Source of the DNA: Promethearchaeota archaeon
Lineage (GTDB): Archaea; Asgardarchaeota; Odinarchaeia; Odinarchaeales; JBHLKK01
Assembly: GCA_048939465.1 (NCBI GenBank)
Contig: JBHLPL010000002.1
Coordinates: 5,608-37,607 of the forward strand
Direction of reading: 5' to 3'
DNA: 32,000 bases
Position numbers and translations under genes: made by a program. Positions within the stretch are counted from its first letter, which is position 1. Every line of letters starts with the position of its first letter. Below, piece by piece: positions 11,726 to 23,771 of this stretch. The notes beneath the pieces are model-generated. The model saw only the letters and a program-made list of their open reading frames with translations, was not told the origin of the DNA and made no database searches.

Positions 11726-11827
11726 TTGCTCCACTCTCTGCCATTTTAGGTAGACGATTCTAGGACTATTTATTTGTCCTTTTAACTCTATCGGCAAAAA
11801 TCTGAAGTCTCATCTTGACCATCTCAA

Positions 11828-11860
11828 GGAGACTCCATCCGATAGGGCGGAGTAGTTTAC
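11828..11860 (+). mobile_element. Isolated IS200/IS605-like right-end hairpin
   Basis: GGAGACTCCATCC-GATA-GGGCGGAGTAGTTTAC; hairpin matches 19006-19026 and terminal GGAGTAGTTTAC matches 18746-18757; TTTAC overlaps the ndk TAA. Confidence 0.7.
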
Positions 11861-18328: not shown

Positions 18329-18712
18329 TTGTCCATGAAAATTGACGTTATTTCGGAGAAGAAAAATCCCTTGCTAGGAAGAAACGAGATATATTTCGAA
18401 ATCTCTCATCCGAATAAAGGAAGTCCAATGAGGAAAAACATAAGGGAAAATTTGGCCTCGAGATACAAGGTGGATCTAGATTTGGTCTTCATACGTAGAC
18501 TTATGCCGGTTGCGGGAAAGCAGAAAATTAAGGGAACTGCAAGAATCTACGAAGATAAGGATCGAGCCGGACTTGTTGAAGCTAAGCACATAGTAAGCAG
18601 AAATCAGACAGAAGTAGAAGAAAAAGAGGAAGTAGAGAAGGAGAAGCCGAAGGAGAAGCCGAAGGAGAAGCCGAAGGAGAAGCCGAAGGAGAAGCCGAAG
18701 GAGAAGGGTTAG
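18329..18712 (+). CDS. rps24e: 30S ribosomal protein S24e with a (KEKP)n C-terminal tail
   Basis: KNPLLGRNE, GTARIYED, HIVSRN; conserved gene order. Confidence 0.94.
   Translation: MSMKIDVISEKKNPLLGRNEIYFEISHPNKGSPMRKNIRENLASRYKVDLDLVFIRRLMPVAGKQKIKGTARIYEDKDRAGLVEAKHIVSRNQTEVEEKEEVEKEKPKEKPKEKPKEKPKEKPKEKG
18637..18706 (+). repeat. Perfect 12-nt tandem repeat (GAAGGAGAAGCC) x5 plus a 10-nt partial copy
   Basis: Read directly; encodes KEKP repeats. Confidence 0.97.
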
Positions 18713-18745
18713 AAGAAACTTGGGGAGTAATAGGTGGTAGTTTCT

Positions 18746-19044
18746 GTAAACTACTCCTCCCTCGCAGAAGGGGCTCATGACTGTGCTTGACCGCAATTCC
18801 CTCCCGAGCTCCGGTTTCATCACAAGTCAAATCAAGGGGCGATTTGCAGCGCCCCAGCCCGGTGATCCGTGCATAGCGCCGAGCTTAAGAGTTTTCCTCG
18901 CCTATCCTCGCACGGGTCATTGACCGTTTCCGCCTCCAAGAGAGGTGTCCCTTCAGACCTATTAGTATATATAGCACAAACTCAGTTAAAGATCCCTCAA
19001 TTCCTCTCCGCCCTTTCGGACGGAGTCCCCCAGAGGTGGTTCCT
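18746..19044 (-). mobile_element. About 300-bp IS200/IS605-like mini-element (copy B)
   Basis: Left-end hairpin ACTCCGTCC-GAAA-GGGCGGAG; TATATATA spacer; right end GAGCCCCTTCTGCGAGGGAGGAGTAGTTTAC; collinear with 22841-23145 (+). Confidence 0.8.
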
Positions 19045-19242
19045 ACGAGCGTCAAAGAATATTATACGGTATCAAAGGACGGAAAAATTGCTAGATTGAA
19101 GAAGAATTGTCCCAGATGCGGACTTGGCACATTCATGGCAGAGCATTCTGATCGATGGAGTTGCGGCAAGTGTGGTTGGACTGAATTCAAGAAAGGGGAG
19201 ATTGAAGACCACGAAAAAGAGGAAAAACTAAATCAGTCTTAA
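19036..19242 (+). CDS. rps27ae: 30S ribosomal protein S27ae; start GTG 19036 or ACG 19045
   Basis: [30 protein letters not shown]. Confidence 0.95.
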
Positions 19243-19336
19243 TCCATAATAGATAGGATAGAATACATAATAGATAAGACGGATAGGGTATATTTCTTTG
19301 AAAGGCTCTGACTTCTTCCGGCACAATTCTCGGGCG

Positions 19337-19936
19337 TCAAGCAGCAGCTTTGGTTACCGGCTCGGAAACTAATTTACTCTTACGCACTTCGCATTTCCTT
19401 AACGGCATAATCTTTTTGCTTTCATTATAGATTTCAGATCCAATCTTTCCGAGCACACATTCATGTACAAATTGCTGGAAAGTCAGTTCCTTTGCCTTTC
19501 TATAAACAGTTTCTTTCATTATTTTGCGGATTCTACGCTCTTGACTGGTCTTGGCTCTATTATGCGTAAATGCTATTGTAGAGATAATTAAGCGATACCT
19601 GTCTTTGGTCATAATACTGAATCGACCGTCAATCCTGGTACTTCCTCGGCGAACTAAACTCCTGAGGTAATCCCGGGCAAAATTGTGACCTTTGAATATG
19701 GTATAAGCTGATTTATCTTTTACTTCTTTAATCTGGAAGAGAAGTTGTATGTGTCCAAGAGTCATATCGCCTGTAATATCATACAGCGTAGCCTCTACAA
19801 CTCTACCTATCAGCCTGTCAGGATCGTTTGTGACGGTTTCACCTATTTCGATGTCTCCGAGATATTTAGGCGAGTATATAGTGAACCAAGATTTAGTTCT
19901 CCATGTATCCTTGACTTTGCTTCGAGACATGGTCAT
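19337..19936 (-). CDS. rps3ae: 30S ribosomal protein S3ae (eS1)
   Basis: KVKDTWRTKSWF, FKGHNFARDYLRSLVRR, KIMPLRKCEVRK. Confidence 0.97.
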   Translation of the reverse strand: MTMSRSKVKDTWRTKSWFTIYSPKYLGDIEIGETVTNDPDRLIGRVVEATLYDITGDMTLGHIQLLFQIKEVKDKSAYTIFKGHNFARDYLRSLVRRGSTRIDGRFSIMTKDRYRLIISTIAFTHNRAKTSQERRIRKIMKETVYRKAKELTFQQFVHECVLGKIGSEIYNESKKIMPLRKCEVRKSKLVSEPVTKAAA

Positions 19937-20002
19937 TCATCTCCTTAGGAATCATGGTAGACGAAAAATCAAATAAAAACCTTTCTTAAAAGTTGACTGC
20001 TT

Positions 20003-20221
20003 TTACTTAATATCTTCCACCGATTTGATGGTGGCCAATAGACTGTCAAGTGAAGTCATGACCTTATCGATGTTTTCTTCATAATGGGCGGATATCTCAA
20101 GTTTTCTTCCAACGCACACAACTTCTACCCTGCGATCGTTTCGATAATGATGTTGCAGGCTTTTTGTGACAGCTCTAGTCCTTTTTTCGGTTGCGCAGTC
20201 CAGCGTTAGCTTTATTTTGAT
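20003..20221 (-). CDS. pcc1: KEOPS subunit Pcc1 (absent from the ORF track; no ATG/GTG/TTG start)
   Basis: Open frame IKIKLTLDCATEKRTRAVTKSLQHHYRNDRRVEVVCVGRKLEISAHYEENIDKVMTSLDSLLATIKSVEDIK*; size, pattern and position (rps15-recJ-pcc1-rps3ae) fit Pcc1. Confidence 0.75.
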   Translation of the reverse strand: MKIKLTLDCATEKRTRAVTKSLQHHYRNDRRVEVVCVGRKLEISAHYEENIDKVMTSLDSLLATIKSVEDIK

Positions 20222-21684
20222 TCCTTGCGTTTTTCGTCCCCCATTTGCTCCCTAATAATCTTTTCCAGATGAAAAACTAATTTCTCTTCACTTCCTGCGG
20301 GGATTAAAGCACCCGCAGCAGCATCGTGTCCTCCTGCTGTGGCTTCTTTTAGTTTAATCTCCTCTATAACTTGGCTTAGAGCCAATCCAAGATTAACACC
20401 GCTCTCAACTAGCTCTTCCCCTGCACGCAACGATACTTTTACACCTTCCGGGTCTGAATAGGCGAAGGAAACAATGACTTTGTCAGACTTCAATATTCGT
20501 GCGTGCAAGGCAACAGATGCAACAGTGCCAATTATTCGTTCATCAACAACATTTTCGCCATGAAAGACCTGAAGAAACTCAGTTTCCTTAACGCGACCTG
20601 GCTGTGTAAGCCATTCGATATATTTTGATATTTTCTGGCGATACTCTACAAGTAATTGCTGTGCTTCCATCAGGGCATTTACTCTGTCGCCAAGACATAT
20701 TGCCACACCCACCCCAGGATGTCTGATTCTACCACAGGCGTTCAGAAGAGAGGCAAATTCTCTGGCATCCCTCAAAGGCGTTCCTTTTTCCTCTCTGAGT
20801 AGAGTGTACACATTCCCAACAATACTCTCAGCCTTATCAGAATCTATACCTTGTTGCAACATGTACTGAATAAGGGCGCTATTCAGTTGGATTTTCTCAT
20901 CTTGTGAGAGATCAGAGAGAGTTCTCCAATGATCGTCTTCTTTCAGTTTTATTCCAGCCTTGGACAAGAACATGAAGCATCTTTCCCCGCTACCTGTCAA
21001 ACCGGGTATGAATGGATCTGTCGTGTATTGCAGTGCAACGTGAATTGGCCTGGTTTCACGTCCAAAGATGGATAAATCCTTCTCTACTCTAAGAACCCCC
21101 GATTCCACACCATCCTTGACGATGATGTCCCCATTTATGCCAAAAAAATCTCGGTGTTCTGCTTTATCCTGTATATCACCTACAGCTCCGACGACAGCGA
21201 GATGAGCAAGATCCCTATTCTCCTTGTTAATGCTTCTGGCCACGAGGTAGGAAACCCCAGCCCCGCTTACTTCCTGACCTCCGTTTATCCCGTATAAATG
21301 GGGGTTTACATGAACCAATCCCGGAAAATCACCTGCGTTCCCCATCTCATGATGATCTAGTATTATTACTGAACTTTCAGAAAGATAGTCTTTAATAGAA
21401 TTTAGCTGAGCAGAACCAAGATCGGAAAAAACATAGAAGGATCGGTTTTCGTCTGCTAGTTCCTTGATGATTTGTGGATTGATTTGCTTCACCACTCGAA
21501 TGTGAAAGGCCATACCAAGCCGTAATAATGTCAATCCAATTACTCCTGCCGCTGCTATTCCGTCTGCGTCATAGTGGGAAGTGATCCGAACTATCCCTTT
21601 TTCATCCGCCCATTCTTGGAGCTTCTCCCCAGCTCTCTTGGCAAGTTTTAGAAAGCTATCAAGATCTCTACTCACCAATCTCAA
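20212..21684 (-). CDS. recJ: DHH-family RecJ-like exonuclease (GAN / Cdc45-related)
   Basis: SHYDADG, SDLGS, LDHH, GAVGD, AREFASLLNACGR, GGHDAAAG; follows rps15. Confidence 0.9.
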   Translation of the reverse strand: MRLVSRDLDSFLKLAKRAGEKLQEWADEKGIVRITSHYDADGIAAAGVIGLTLLRLGMAFHIRVVKQINPQIIKELADENRSFYVFSDLGSAQLNSIKDYLSESSVIILDHHEMGNAGDFPGLVHVNPHLYGINGGQEVSGAGVSYLVARSINKENRDLAHLAVVGAVGDIQDKAEHRDFFGINGDIIVKDGVESGVLRVEKDLSIFGRETRPIHVALQYTTDPFIPGLTGSGERCFMFLSKAGIKLKEDDHWRTLSDLSQDEKIQLNSALIQYMLQQGIDSDKAESIVGNVYTLLREEKGTPLRDAREFASLLNACGRIRHPGVGVAICLGDRVNALMEAQQLLVEYRQKISKYIEWLTQPGRVKETEFLQVFHGENVVDERIIGTVASVALHARILKSDKVIVSFAYSDPEGVKVSLRAGEELVESGVNLGLALSQVIEEIKLKEATAGGHDAAAGALIPAGSEEKLVFHLEKIIREQMGDEKRKESK

Positions 21685-21717
21685 TCATCCGAAAATTCCT
21701 TTAAGATTCCTTAGAGC

Positions 21718-22173
21718 CTATCGTACCATCAGTACAGCCTTATCACGACTATATTTCCAATCAGAAGGAAGGATGCCCTTTTTCTTATAATACTTGGAGA
21801 GACGATGGATCTTGCTCTCTATTAGTTGTAGCCCCCGCTTTGAGTGAAGATCTTTCGGATGTTCCTCCAGATGCCTTCTCAAGTTCACAGAACTCTGCAA
21901 CAAGTCAATAAGATCTTCAGGTAATGAAGGAAGTAATTCACGTTCTTTTAGAATCTGAGTCACTGACTTACCAGCAGCCAACTTAACTAAGGGAACCCCG
22001 TATTGATCCCTCATAATATTACCTATCATTGAGGGGGGCTCCCCCGCTTTGGCCAATTTGACTACCAGAGCCTCTACTTCATCAGCGTTTCTCATAAACC
22101 ATTCAGGAGACTTTGTTCGAGGAGGTCTGGTGGATTTTGATTTCCCTTTCCTACGGGTGTGCATCCTTGCCAT
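21718..22173 (-). CDS. rps15: 30S ribosomal protein S15 (uS15)
   Basis: [40 protein letters not shown]. Confidence 0.97.
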
Positions 22174-22208
22174 ATTACTCCACCGCCAAAATCAAGATAC
22201 TTGAGGGC

Positions 22209-22222
22209 TTTTAAATTTTCTG
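22209..22222 (-). promoter_or_regulatory. Putative BRE/TATA promoter of rps15
   Basis: CAGAAAA-TTTAAAA on the minus strand about 36 nt upstream of ATG. Confidence 0.45.
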
Positions 22223-22276
22223 ATTTATGATCTACAGCCAGTTCAGTATGTTAAAACCATTAAGAAGGCTTAAACC

Positions 22277-22840
22277 TCATCGAGCCGAGAAGTTCTTCTT
22301 TAACCAATCTGCAAACTTGTACAAAACCTTCTTTCTGTGAGAAAGTTTGTTTTTTTCATCAAAACCCATTTCAGCATAGGTTCTACCGTCACCCTCCAGC
22401 GGGACAAAAATAGGATCGTATCCCCAGAGTTTACCCCGTTCTTCTTCGGAAATTGTACCTTCTACATTGGCAGAAATGCATGTAGATACTCGATCATGAG
22501 AGAAGGCGATAACTGACTTAAAGACTGCCTTCCTTGTTGCGACTCCCTCCATCAACCTTAGAATCCCCTTATTCCCTATAGTTTTGAAGACGTACGAAGA
22601 GTACGGGCCAGGAAAGCCGTTAAGTGCTTCGATAAACAGCCCGGTATCTTCCACAAAAACTGGTTTTTTGATCTTTTTAGAAACTAGAGACACACTGTAT
22701 GAGGCTATTTTCTCTAGACTTTCATGTTGAGGTTCAATCCTCTCGATATCCAGATGTTCAATCTCAAAGCCTATCTTTCCCAATATTTCAGATGCCTCTC
22801 TTATCTTATTCTTATTACTTGTAGCAAAAAGCAGCTTCAT
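22277..22840 (-). CDS. rdgB: dITP/XTP pyrophosphatase (Ham1/RdgB)
   Basis: FATSNKNK, EDTGLFIEALNGFPGPYS, WGYDPIF, KNKLSHR. Confidence 0.95.
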   Translation of the reverse strand: MKLLFATSNKNKIREASEILGKIGFEIEHLDIERIEPQHESLEKIASYSVSLVSKKIKKPVFVEDTGLFIEALNGFPGPYSSYVFKTIGNKGILRLMEGVATRKAVFKSVIAFSHDRVSTCISANVEGTISEEERGKLWGYDPIFVPLEGDGRTYAEMGFDEKNKLSHRKKVLYKFADWLKKNFSAR

Positions 22841-23145
22841 TTGATCGCCTCGAGGAAACTCCGACCAAAAGGACGGAGAGGGATTAAGGAGTCGATGAAT
22901 GCTATTGGGACATACGCACCAATAGATTTGAAGTCACACCTCTCTTCGATGTGGAAACAGCTAATGACGGATGAGGGTGGGCGCCATGGACTGATAGCCA
23001 CTGTATCGCCTGACGCTATATGCAGATTACTGGGTTCAGACGCTTTGGACTTGCTGCCAATCTGGCCTGTGATGCGACCAAAGCCCATTTGGGAATTAAG
23101 GTCCAGCATAGTCATAAACTCCTTCACTAAGATGGAGTATTTCAT
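22841..23145 (+). mobile_element. 305-bp IS200/IS605-like mini-element (copy A) inserted at the bud32/rdgB overlap
   Basis: Follows TTCAT (22836-22840) and ends in TTCAT (23141-23145); left-end hairpin ACTCCGACC-AAAA-GGACGGAG; collinear with copy B. Confidence 0.82.
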
Positions 23146-23771
23146 CTATCTTCGATATATCGTCCACGTCTCTCGACCTCCCCTATGCGAAGTATAGCAT
23201 CCTCCGCATCCTTGCCCAAGACCTCACGATAACCAGCCAAAACTGCTTCGAAAAACTCTTCAGCGTGTTGATAGTGAGTACTTTGTAAGGCACGCTGCAT
23301 AAGGTGGAGATCCACTCCTTTATGTTCAATTTCTGATGAGTGCTCACCCAATCCAAAATCTATGAAGTATATTTGCTTTTCAGAGGTCAAGATCATATTT
23401 GAGGTAGTTAAATCACCATGTATAAGTCCGTTCTTATGGAGACGTCCGATTGAGCGTCCTACACAGGTACAGACTCTTTTCTGTTCTTGTCTTGTAATTT
23501 CATTAATAACATTCTTAAGCTTCTGCCCATCAATGTATTCGTAAATGATGGTGGTTTTAGGAACATCTACTTGGCATATTGCCGGAGTGGAAACCCCAGC
23601 TTTTCTAGCACTGCTGAACATCTTGGCTTCATGAATCGTCCTGTATTGCCTGATCCTTAGATCCAGTTCAGGAATTCGATATCTCTTTGCTACCCTGCAC
23701 TTCCGTACGACAACTCTGTCGTACCACTTCTCCTTAAACAAATAAGCTTCAGCACCTTTGGCCATGAGCAA
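23142..23771 (-). CDS. bud32: KEOPS kinase Bud32 (piD261/PRPK)
   Basis: KGAEA, RTIHEAKM, IHGDLTTSNM, IDFGLG, VDLHLM, RGRY. Confidence 0.95.
   Translation of the reverse strand: MLMAKGAEAYLFKEKWYDRVVVRKCRVAKRYRIPELDLRIRQYRTIHEAKMFSSARKAGVSTPAICQVDVPKTTIIYEYIDGQKLKNVINEITRQEQKRVCTCVGRSIGRLHKNGLIHGDLTTSNMILTSEKQIYFIDFGLGEHSSEIEHKGVDLHLMQRALQSTHYQHAEEFFEAVLAGYREVLGKDAEDAILRIGEVERRGRYIEDR

Follow-up and report, generated by a model that had tools for sequence, protein, structure and literature searches.

Two gene-less blocks between genes of an Odinarchaeal genome

The stretch of DNA analysed here (the window) comprises 32,000 nucleotides (nt) of a Promethearchaeota archaeon of the Odinarchaeia, positions 5608-37607 of contig C69 in a genome assembly of 1.96 Mb (152 contigs, 91% complete, 43% G+C). 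Two blocks of about 300 nt lie between its genes: element A, between a Ham1-family gene and a gene for a Bud32/RIO-like kinase, and element B, between the ribosomal protein genes rpS24e and rpS27ae (Table 1). An initial annotation had described them as diverged copies of one element that align from end to end, and this is confirmed: the mean column identity of A and B over their full length is 76%, a single-sequence nhmmer search of the whole genome with A as query recovers B at E = 1e-24, and the two belong to a family with 19 full-length copies, so that their similarity is much greater than chance would give. The coordinates first given are exact to the base, with conservation beginning right after a TTCAT-type pentamer and stopping at ...GTAGTTTAC, and the layout first claimed is borne out, with a hairpin at the left, then an A/T-rich box and ~215 nt of conserved body, and a second hairpin at the right. 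The statement that the blocks hold no protein gene stands for conserved genes, although A does contain a 102-codon frame on the minus strand (22837-23145). At the right terminus B keeps the family consensus GTAGTTTAC, whereas A has GTATTTCAT instead.

Table 1. Elements A and B, their parts and the adjoining genes (IS, insertion sequence; TAM, transposon-associated motif)
Feature	Position in window	Strand	Remarks
Element A	22841-23145	+	305 nt; interpreted as a gene-less IS200/IS605 derivative
Target/TAM pentamer of A, TTCAT	22836-22840	+	left flank; reads ATGAA on the minus strand, the start of the Ham1-family gene
Left-end sub-terminal hairpin of A	22859-22878	+	CTCCGACC, AAAA loop, GGACGGAG; one A.A mismatch
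Most conserved family block, A	22924-22970	+	hairpin CACCTC...GATGTG, GGAAAC and GGTTAATGACC; homologous to interior tnpB
Putative omega-RNA scaffold region of A	22990-23145	+	homologous to the tnpB 3' end and right end of the complete IS
Right-end sub-terminal hairpin of A	23118-23138	+	followed by the mutated terminus TATTTCAT (family: TAGTTTAC)
Would-be omega-RNA guide flank of A	23146-23165	+	predicted from its position past the right end; mechanism as in PMC10055086
Element B	18746-19044	-	299 nt; both ends intact
Target pentamer of B, now CTCGT	19045-19049	-	CTCAT at the same place in the sister species
Left-end hairpin of B	19006-19025	-	CTCCGTCC, GAAA loop, GGGCGGAG
TATA-like box of B, TCTTTAACTG	18982-18992	-	family consensus CCTTAAATAC
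TATATATA spacer of B	18966-18973	-	9-16 nt downstream of the TATA-like box
Most conserved family block, B	18914-18960	-	homologous to interior tnpB, IS nt ~724-792
Right-end hairpin of B	18753-18774	-	followed by the family terminus TAGTTTAC (18746-18753)
Would-be omega-RNA guide flank of B	18726-18745	-	predicted from its position past the right end
Ham1-family gene	22277-22840	-	start ATGAA, complement of TTCAT; Ham1 profile 1-186 aligns from residue 3
Bud32/RIO-like kinase gene	23142-23771	-	upstream of A; stop TGA (23142-23144) in the last bases of A
rpS24e	18329-18712	+	upstream of B, same operon
rpS27ae	19036-19242	+	sole genomic copy; former ATG now ACG; first in-frame start GTG (19036-19038)

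We interpret A and B, with a probability of about 0.88, as insertions of a non-autonomous element without a protein gene that derives from a TnpB-only (IS1341-type) IS200/IS605 transposon, is comparable to the palindrome-associated transposable elements (PATEs) and carries an omega-RNA scaffold. Each copy retains the left end of the parent with its sub-terminal hairpin (the TATA-like box has been lost in A), a short interior piece of tnpB, and the last ~155 nt of the parent, which comprise a putative scaffold of the omega-RNA, or right-end element RNA (reRNA), overlapping the 3' end of tnpB, and the right-end hairpin. In support of this interpretation, the ends are homologous to those of tnpB elements, insertion occurs 3' of TTCAT without duplication and differs in presence or absence between species, the genome contains an intact cognate TnpB and one Y1 TnpA, and the copies appear to conserve a fold on the sense strand.

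Contigs assembled from four public DNA runs span both junctions of A and of B, and no empty-site joint for either element was seen in the contigs of these runs; the joints listed there, 18801>19001 and 22966>23154, have short sides and are compatible with other copies or with the deleted allele of a relative. The DNA runs that contain the stretch are labelled as mangrove and sediment metagenomes, and no RNA run was among the public runs listed as containing it.

A family of copies in three species and beyond

Further copies, for which the initial annotation had proposed a search of the genome, were found by iterated nhmmer: the 19 full-length copies measure 291-306 nt, one more measures 378 nt (E values from 1e-42 to 1e-94), and there are ~60 shorter matches, which mostly share the first 40-120 positions. 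Both other genomes of the genus (G001 and G002) hold additional copies, and the family alignment used below comprises 30 copies out of these three species, diverging from the consensus at 25-98 positions. With 97 differences from the consensus, A is the second most diverged copy of the alignment; B has 52. TTCAT, or a variant with one base changed, flanks most copies on the left. Throughout the 30 aligned copies the left hairpin, CTCCGTCC-GAAA-GGGCGGAG, resembles the right hairpin, GCTCCTTCT-GCAA-GGGAGGAGT, in direct orientation, such that the ends consist of two similar hairpins on the same strand, without inverted terminal repeats.

Shorter forms occur as well. Profile searches detected end-only mini-copies on contigs C84 and C41, in which positions 1-48 are fused to 252-305. 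A minimal form of 47 nt with one hairpin lies within the window at 11814-11860 (+), with the target CTCAT at 11809-11813, and combines the left-end leader CTTGACCATCTCAAGGAG and the right-end tail TAGTTTAC on that hairpin. A second family shares the hairpin core and has a different left arm, CTATCTTCCGCAAGAAG, and the target TTTAT; it includes the tnpA+tnpB element of contig C105 and the tnpB element of contig C2, and one of its copies lies in the window at 1272 to ~1350 (+), with TTTAT at 1267-1271. Elsewhere in the genome a full-length copy stands directly 3' of a tRNA gene (G000:C118:3930-3960, L003), where the 3' end of the tRNA, ...GGTCGCAAGTTCGAGTC...GCGCCA, is followed by a TTTAT-type flank.

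Among 70 genera sampled in the phylum, two others contain cores 75-81% identical to that of the family (positions 91-232), mostly without a neighbouring tnpB. A pattern scan of public genomes gave seven matches, of which the four bacterial ones are at chance level (~2 expected by estimate), and the profile confirmed the Asgard ones only. Two public contigs of 'Candidatus Hodarchaeota archaeon isolate DZ1B.307' have profile scores equal to those of two loci of the same-genus genome G001, and a more distant copy is present in 'Candidatus Borrarchaeum yapensis'.

Insertion without target duplication

The site of B is readable in a sister species (G001), where it is empty: ...GGAGGCAATCCC is directly joined to ATGAGTGTCAAG..., the start of rpS27ae, with the uninterrupted joint ...CAATCCC|ATGAG.... 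In the window, 299 nt lie exactly between the same two flanks with no duplicated bases; this exact gain implies that insertion was precise and made no duplication. The family inserts 3' of TTCAT without duplicating the target site, and B is a lineage-specific insertion of a typical copy, absent in the one sister species where the site can be read. Site A is occupied in each of the three species of the genus, and each shows its own pattern of decay: ~220 nt remain in G001, and G002 has ~124 nt from the left part plus a few bases of the right end. The presence of an element at this site in all three species indicates that the insertion is old, in agreement with the 97 consensus differences; A is probably a decaying relic.

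The parent transposon and its TnpB

TnpB genes (PF07282) were found in the same genome on contigs C2, C105, C70 and C55, and a single Y1 transposase gene on C105. On C55, profile positions 151-305 follow the region of tnpB that encodes the zinc ribbon, on the same strand (5886 to 5724, against 6043 to 5867 for the PF07282 match); on C70, profile positions 1-78 precede the start of tnpB. An exact overlap of 77 nt joins the two contigs into an insertion sequence (IS) of 1.26 kb bounded by TTCAT and GTAGTTTAC. It encodes an uninterrupted TnpB of 381 amino acids with the RuvC motifs VDLG, IEDL and NSDLNGARNI and a CxxC...CxxC zinc ribbon, which has the Pfam OrfB_IS605 and Cas12f1-like TNB domains and resembles TnpB and Cas12f chains in the PDB (E = 8e-20). 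The same IS occurs as a contiguous copy in both other genomes of the genus, intact in G001 and frameshifted in G002, and also in a further Asgard genus. Similarity to the ends of complete IS200/IS605 elements, on which the initial annotation had staked its interpretation, is thus found at both ends, with profile positions 1-78 and 151-305 matching the ends of tnpB elements.

That annotation had pictured an IS605 element with tnpB deleted. The picture is right in that both the left end (consensus 1-88) and 155 nt at the right are retained, but the derivative is not the product of a simple single deletion, because the body also retains an interior piece of tnpB: consensus positions ~95-140 align with IS nt ~724-792 in each of the four complete copies (10-kb search, E = 3e-5 to 1e-4). 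The counterpart of this block in the IS has 26 extra nt within the hairpin CACCTGC...GCAGGTG. In tnpB, where the block supplies the codons for ...KGTP...RWKRFMTW, ~470 nt separate it from the right end downstream. Base pairing is possible between its GGAAAC and the terminal GUUU, and third-position conservation in the block is only mildly raised (0.35-0.45).

The promoter had likewise been expected to survive. A TATA-like box, a putative promoter, is present in the family consensus at positions 59-68 (CCTTAAATAC), ~25 nt ahead of the onset of strong conservation, and in B, but it has been lost in A.

The Y1 transposase gene of C105 (G000:C105:1108-1554; L074:251-655) is matched by the Y1_Tnp profile at E = 7.5e-37 and resembles ISDra2 TnpA at E = 8e-23; it is the only one in a genome that is 91% complete. 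On the same contig are a tnpB and, 145 nt ahead of the first codon of the Y1 tnpA covered by the Pfam match, a matching left hairpin. The transposase has D-Y-F-H where ISDra2 TnpA has D-H-V-H, the HUH motif, and retains the catalytic tyrosine context KYIE.

A putative omega-RNA scaffold

Profile positions 151-305 extend from within the zinc-ribbon coding region of tnpB as far as the transposon's right end, the place at which omega-RNA (reRNA) scaffolds are located. Comparison of the four complete IS copies shows that identity at third codon positions is mostly ~0.15-0.35 along tnpB, reaches 0.40-0.45 in three short interior stretches and climbs to 0.5-0.8 over the final 180 nt. Such raised conservation of synonymous sites at the 3' end of the IS is what an overlapping functional RNA would predict, and the part of tnpB in which synonymous sites are conserved is the part that the mini-element retains.

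A RIBOSUM-scored consensus fold of the 30 copies contains 73 pairs: those of the two end hairpins, of five internal helices and of one long-range AAAC:GUUU helix that connects the interior block to the last bases. Consensus pairs are kept in 89% of the cells of the alignment, against ~42% when the partners are slid by 1-3 columns. On the sense strand G-U combinations outnumber A-C combinations (278 vs 109), and the two are roughly equal in the slid controls. Double-sided changes occur at 13 pairs of the body, where shuffles give 7.2 +/- 2.3 (9 of 500 reach 13), and in 20 cells, where shuffles give 8.7 +/- 2.7 (none of 500). The same shuffle test gives no excess of double-sided changes for the two end hairpins. 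Covariation, which had been proposed as a check on the structure, is therefore in excess in the body but not in the end hairpins, and the excess is to be read with the fold having been derived from the same alignment of related copies. Of the 57 consensus pairs in the body and right end, B forms 52, the family median, and A forms 41.

If these elements behave as published IS200/IS605 biology suggests, the copies would have moved as single-stranded circles, with TnpA supplied in trans. The left-end promoter would direct the synthesis of an RNA of ~220 nt extending past the right end by 16-20 nt of flank, and this RNA would load the TnpB of the full-length element. The nuclease would then cut the emptied donor site (TTCAT plus flank), and recombination would restore the element.

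Copies at gene junctions and the start of rpS27ae

On the opposite strand TTCAT reads ATGAA, and 8 of the 19 full-length copies sit exactly on the ATG of an open reading frame (ORF) of at least 100 codons. Such an ORF is found at 16% of the ATGAA sites of the genome (p = 0.006 for 8/19), and at 4.4% of them when the ATG must also be the first of its frame (p = 6.5e-7). The reverse complement of the left end places GAGGTG 5-7 nt ahead of the ATG in 23 of 30 copies, and at the right terminus the reverse complement (GTAA...) provides a stop at the same codon for the upstream gene. Three species have the stop at the same right-terminus codon at site A with differing letters (TGA, TGA and TAA). Removal of the element restores an ATGA stop/start overlap at five sites, A included.

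Element B displaced the ribosome-binding site of the sole rpS27ae gene. At 19045-19047 (+) the window reads ACG, in place of the rpS27ae ATG of the sister species; the ACG is also present in contigs of the four public runs, and the in-frame GTG at 19036-19038 lies inside the left end of B. Just ahead of B, the end of rpS24e (18640-18712, +) consists of a run of EKPK repeats encoded by tandem GAGAAGCCGAAG units; the rpS24e tail of the sister species is likewise rich in lysine and glutamate, similar and not identical. Our tentative suggestion is that the termini may have become adapted to harmless docking, by way of the ATGAA target, a replacement ribosome-binding site and an upstream stop, in which case rpS27ae would now most likely start at the GTG in B.

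The mycobacterial interspersed repetitive units (MIRUs), said to have been described by Supply and colleagues in 1997, are reportedly small repeats within operons whose short frames overlap the flanking stop and start codons, and would thus be a precedent for a junction-compatible repeat. They are said to differ in being tandem, minisatellite-like bacterial units that do not derive from IS200/IS605 elements and have no guide-RNA scaffold.

The 102-codon frame of A overlaps both neighbouring genes, its ATG with the stop of the kinase gene upstream and its TGA with the ATG of the Ham1-family gene. Antisense frames of at least 85 codons are present in 20 of 30 copies, against 11.4 +/- 2.2 expected from column shuffling and 8.4 under a second simple null. 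A null that keeps the substitution spectrum of each copy and the site rates removes most of this excess (per-copy p = 0.03-0.83; 0.09 for A), and the open frame is independent of gene context, occurring in 10 of 15 copies with a downstream gene and 10 of 15 without. An ORF serving as a ribosome relay was dropped as a candidate in view of the weak outcome under the spectrum-preserving null and the missing tie to gene context. The frame as a conserved gene was rejected on the grounds of no Pfam match, a split frame in B, mixed frames and no codon periodicity.

Weighing the alternatives

The junction features might be taken to mean that the elements persist as cassettes useful to the host, supplying a ribosome-binding site (GAGGTG), an upstream stop (GTAA...) and an antisense frame that relays ribosomes. 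Such a role would agree with the number of copies on a gene ATG at either p value, with the spacing of GAGGTG before the ATG in 23 of 30 copies, with the five ATGA overlaps restored by removal, with the stop codon retained at site A in three species by different sequences, with the exchange of the rpS27ae ATG for ACG and an in-frame GTG within B, and with the surplus of long antisense frames over column shuffling. We nevertheless consider it doubtful, as the enrichment is explicable by survivorship, insertions elsewhere in a dense genome being lost, and the bases of the left end may be conserved for TnpA and for pairing with the target; the open frame, for its part, is unremarkable once mutation spectrum and site rates are kept, is as frequent with as without a downstream gene, and varies between copies with no codon periodicity. 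Survivorship in a gene-dense genome can account for much of the junction pattern, and adaptation of the ends is possible. It is very unlikely that A encodes a genuine small protein of 102 amino acids (22837-23145, -) and that B is its frameshifted paralogue. The frame of A is indeed open from the overlap with the kinase-gene stop to the overlap with the Ham1 ATG, and many copies contain long antisense frames, but Pfam has no match to the 102-codon frame, the frame of B is split over two frames, and the shared hairpin is read in all three frames among the partial copies. The frame also differs between copies, with near-equal variability of the three codon phases (0.77, 0.73 and 0.68), the amino-acid identity of A and B is low given their 76% nucleotide identity, and the openness is accounted for by composition.

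Several observations weigh against a mobile element that makes an omega-RNA. In element A the TATA-like box is missing, the right terminus is mutated and no more than 41 of the 57 consensus pairs form. The one Y1 transposase detected has Y-F-H rather than H-V-H, which makes mobility today uncertain. Rfam gives no match anywhere in the window at the gathering score and none that overlaps either element with the threshold relaxed to E = 10, and the omega-RNA label accordingly rests on position and homology. Single-sequence fold energies are no better than those of shuffled sequences (z = -0.37, -1.27 and -0.35 for A, B and the best copy). For the alignment as a whole, RNAalifold with default settings reaches only -8.2 kcal/mol and sets the left hairpin in the wrong register, and its consensus was replaced by the RIBOSUM-scored fold; the covariation excess over that fold is modest, and the copies are mutually related. 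The unremarkable single-sequence folds, the plain decay of A and the non-canonical HUH motif of the sole TnpA would equally suit inert fossils, true transposon derivatives whose omega-RNA is neither made nor used and whose conservation reflects recent spread. We judge this unlikely, since copies that differ from the consensus at 25-98 positions yet retain 89% of the pairs of the body, with a bias to G-U over A-C on one strand and a surplus of double-sided changes; the core is 75-81% identical in a distant genus, the homologous stretch of tnpB has conserved synonymous sites, and the cognate TnpB is intact. A structured non-coding RNA gene family or cis-regulatory leader with no relation to transposition would also have a conserved fold, and could sit within operons in fixed orientation as the copies do, but it is extremely improbable given that both ends are homologous to tnpB elements, that the target pentamer is specific, that the sister species has an exact empty site, that end-only mini forms exist and that Rfam has no match.

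Relation to known elements and implications

The interpretation of A and B as PATE-like derivatives of a TnpB-only transposon places them beside elements of haloarchaea. PATEs were described in Haloquadratum walsbyi and other haloarchaea (PMC3119063, Dyall-Smith et al. 2011) as elements too short for a transposase, with palindromes near the termini, no inverted terminal repeats and no target duplication, including terminal-only forms of 52 bp. The Odinarchaeal elements fit this description, with lengths of 291-306 nt, no Pfam domain in the only long frame of A, terminal hairpins and an exact empty site. Like the haloarchaeal PATEs (PMC3119063) they occur in an archaeal host and derive from IS605/IS1341-type elements by deletion of the core, and the 47-nt form in the window is comparable to the ~50-bp terminal-only PATEs of Haloquadratum. 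The haloarchaeal PATEs differ in that their sequences are unrelated to the Asgard family, and that the description in PMC3119063 predates omega-RNA and offers no RNA reading.

A further comparison is with the PATE-like members of the ISGst families of Geobacillus stearothermophilus, which encode omega-RNAs used in trans (PMC10055086, Meers et al. 2023). They resemble the Asgard elements in having no protein gene and in sharing their ends with TnpB- or TnpA-bearing relatives in the same genome; retention of an omega-RNA for TnpB made elsewhere, and dependence on TnpA in trans, would be further common features. The Asgard elements differ in host, in their target TTCAT, in the interior piece of tnpB in the body and in the many copies on start codons. 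According to the summary in PMC10691335 of Altae-Tran et al. (2021), stand-alone omega-RNAs of OMEGA systems act in trans with compatible effectors. In the terms of that summary, the present family is similar in consisting of mobilised loci without effector or transposase, with effector-bearing loci in the same genome; use in trans, which experiments have established for the stand-alone omega-RNAs, is only presumed for the Asgard family.

Elements of this kind have thus already been described (PMC3119063, PMC10055086, PMC10691335), and the known picture of IS200/IS605 biology is unchanged. What A and B add is a base-level record, in Asgard archaea, of a mini-transposon family with a putative omega-RNA and of its parent TnpB element, which provides candidate TAM (TTCAT), scaffold and nuclease sequences for a possible compact RNA-guided system. 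Annotators are warned that 300-nt 'intergenic' blocks in Asgard operons, and the small ORFs called on them, can be remnants of transposons. The docking of copies at gene junctions, together with the start codon of rpS27ae, offers a small and testable case in which a selfish element may have shaped the translation signals of its host.

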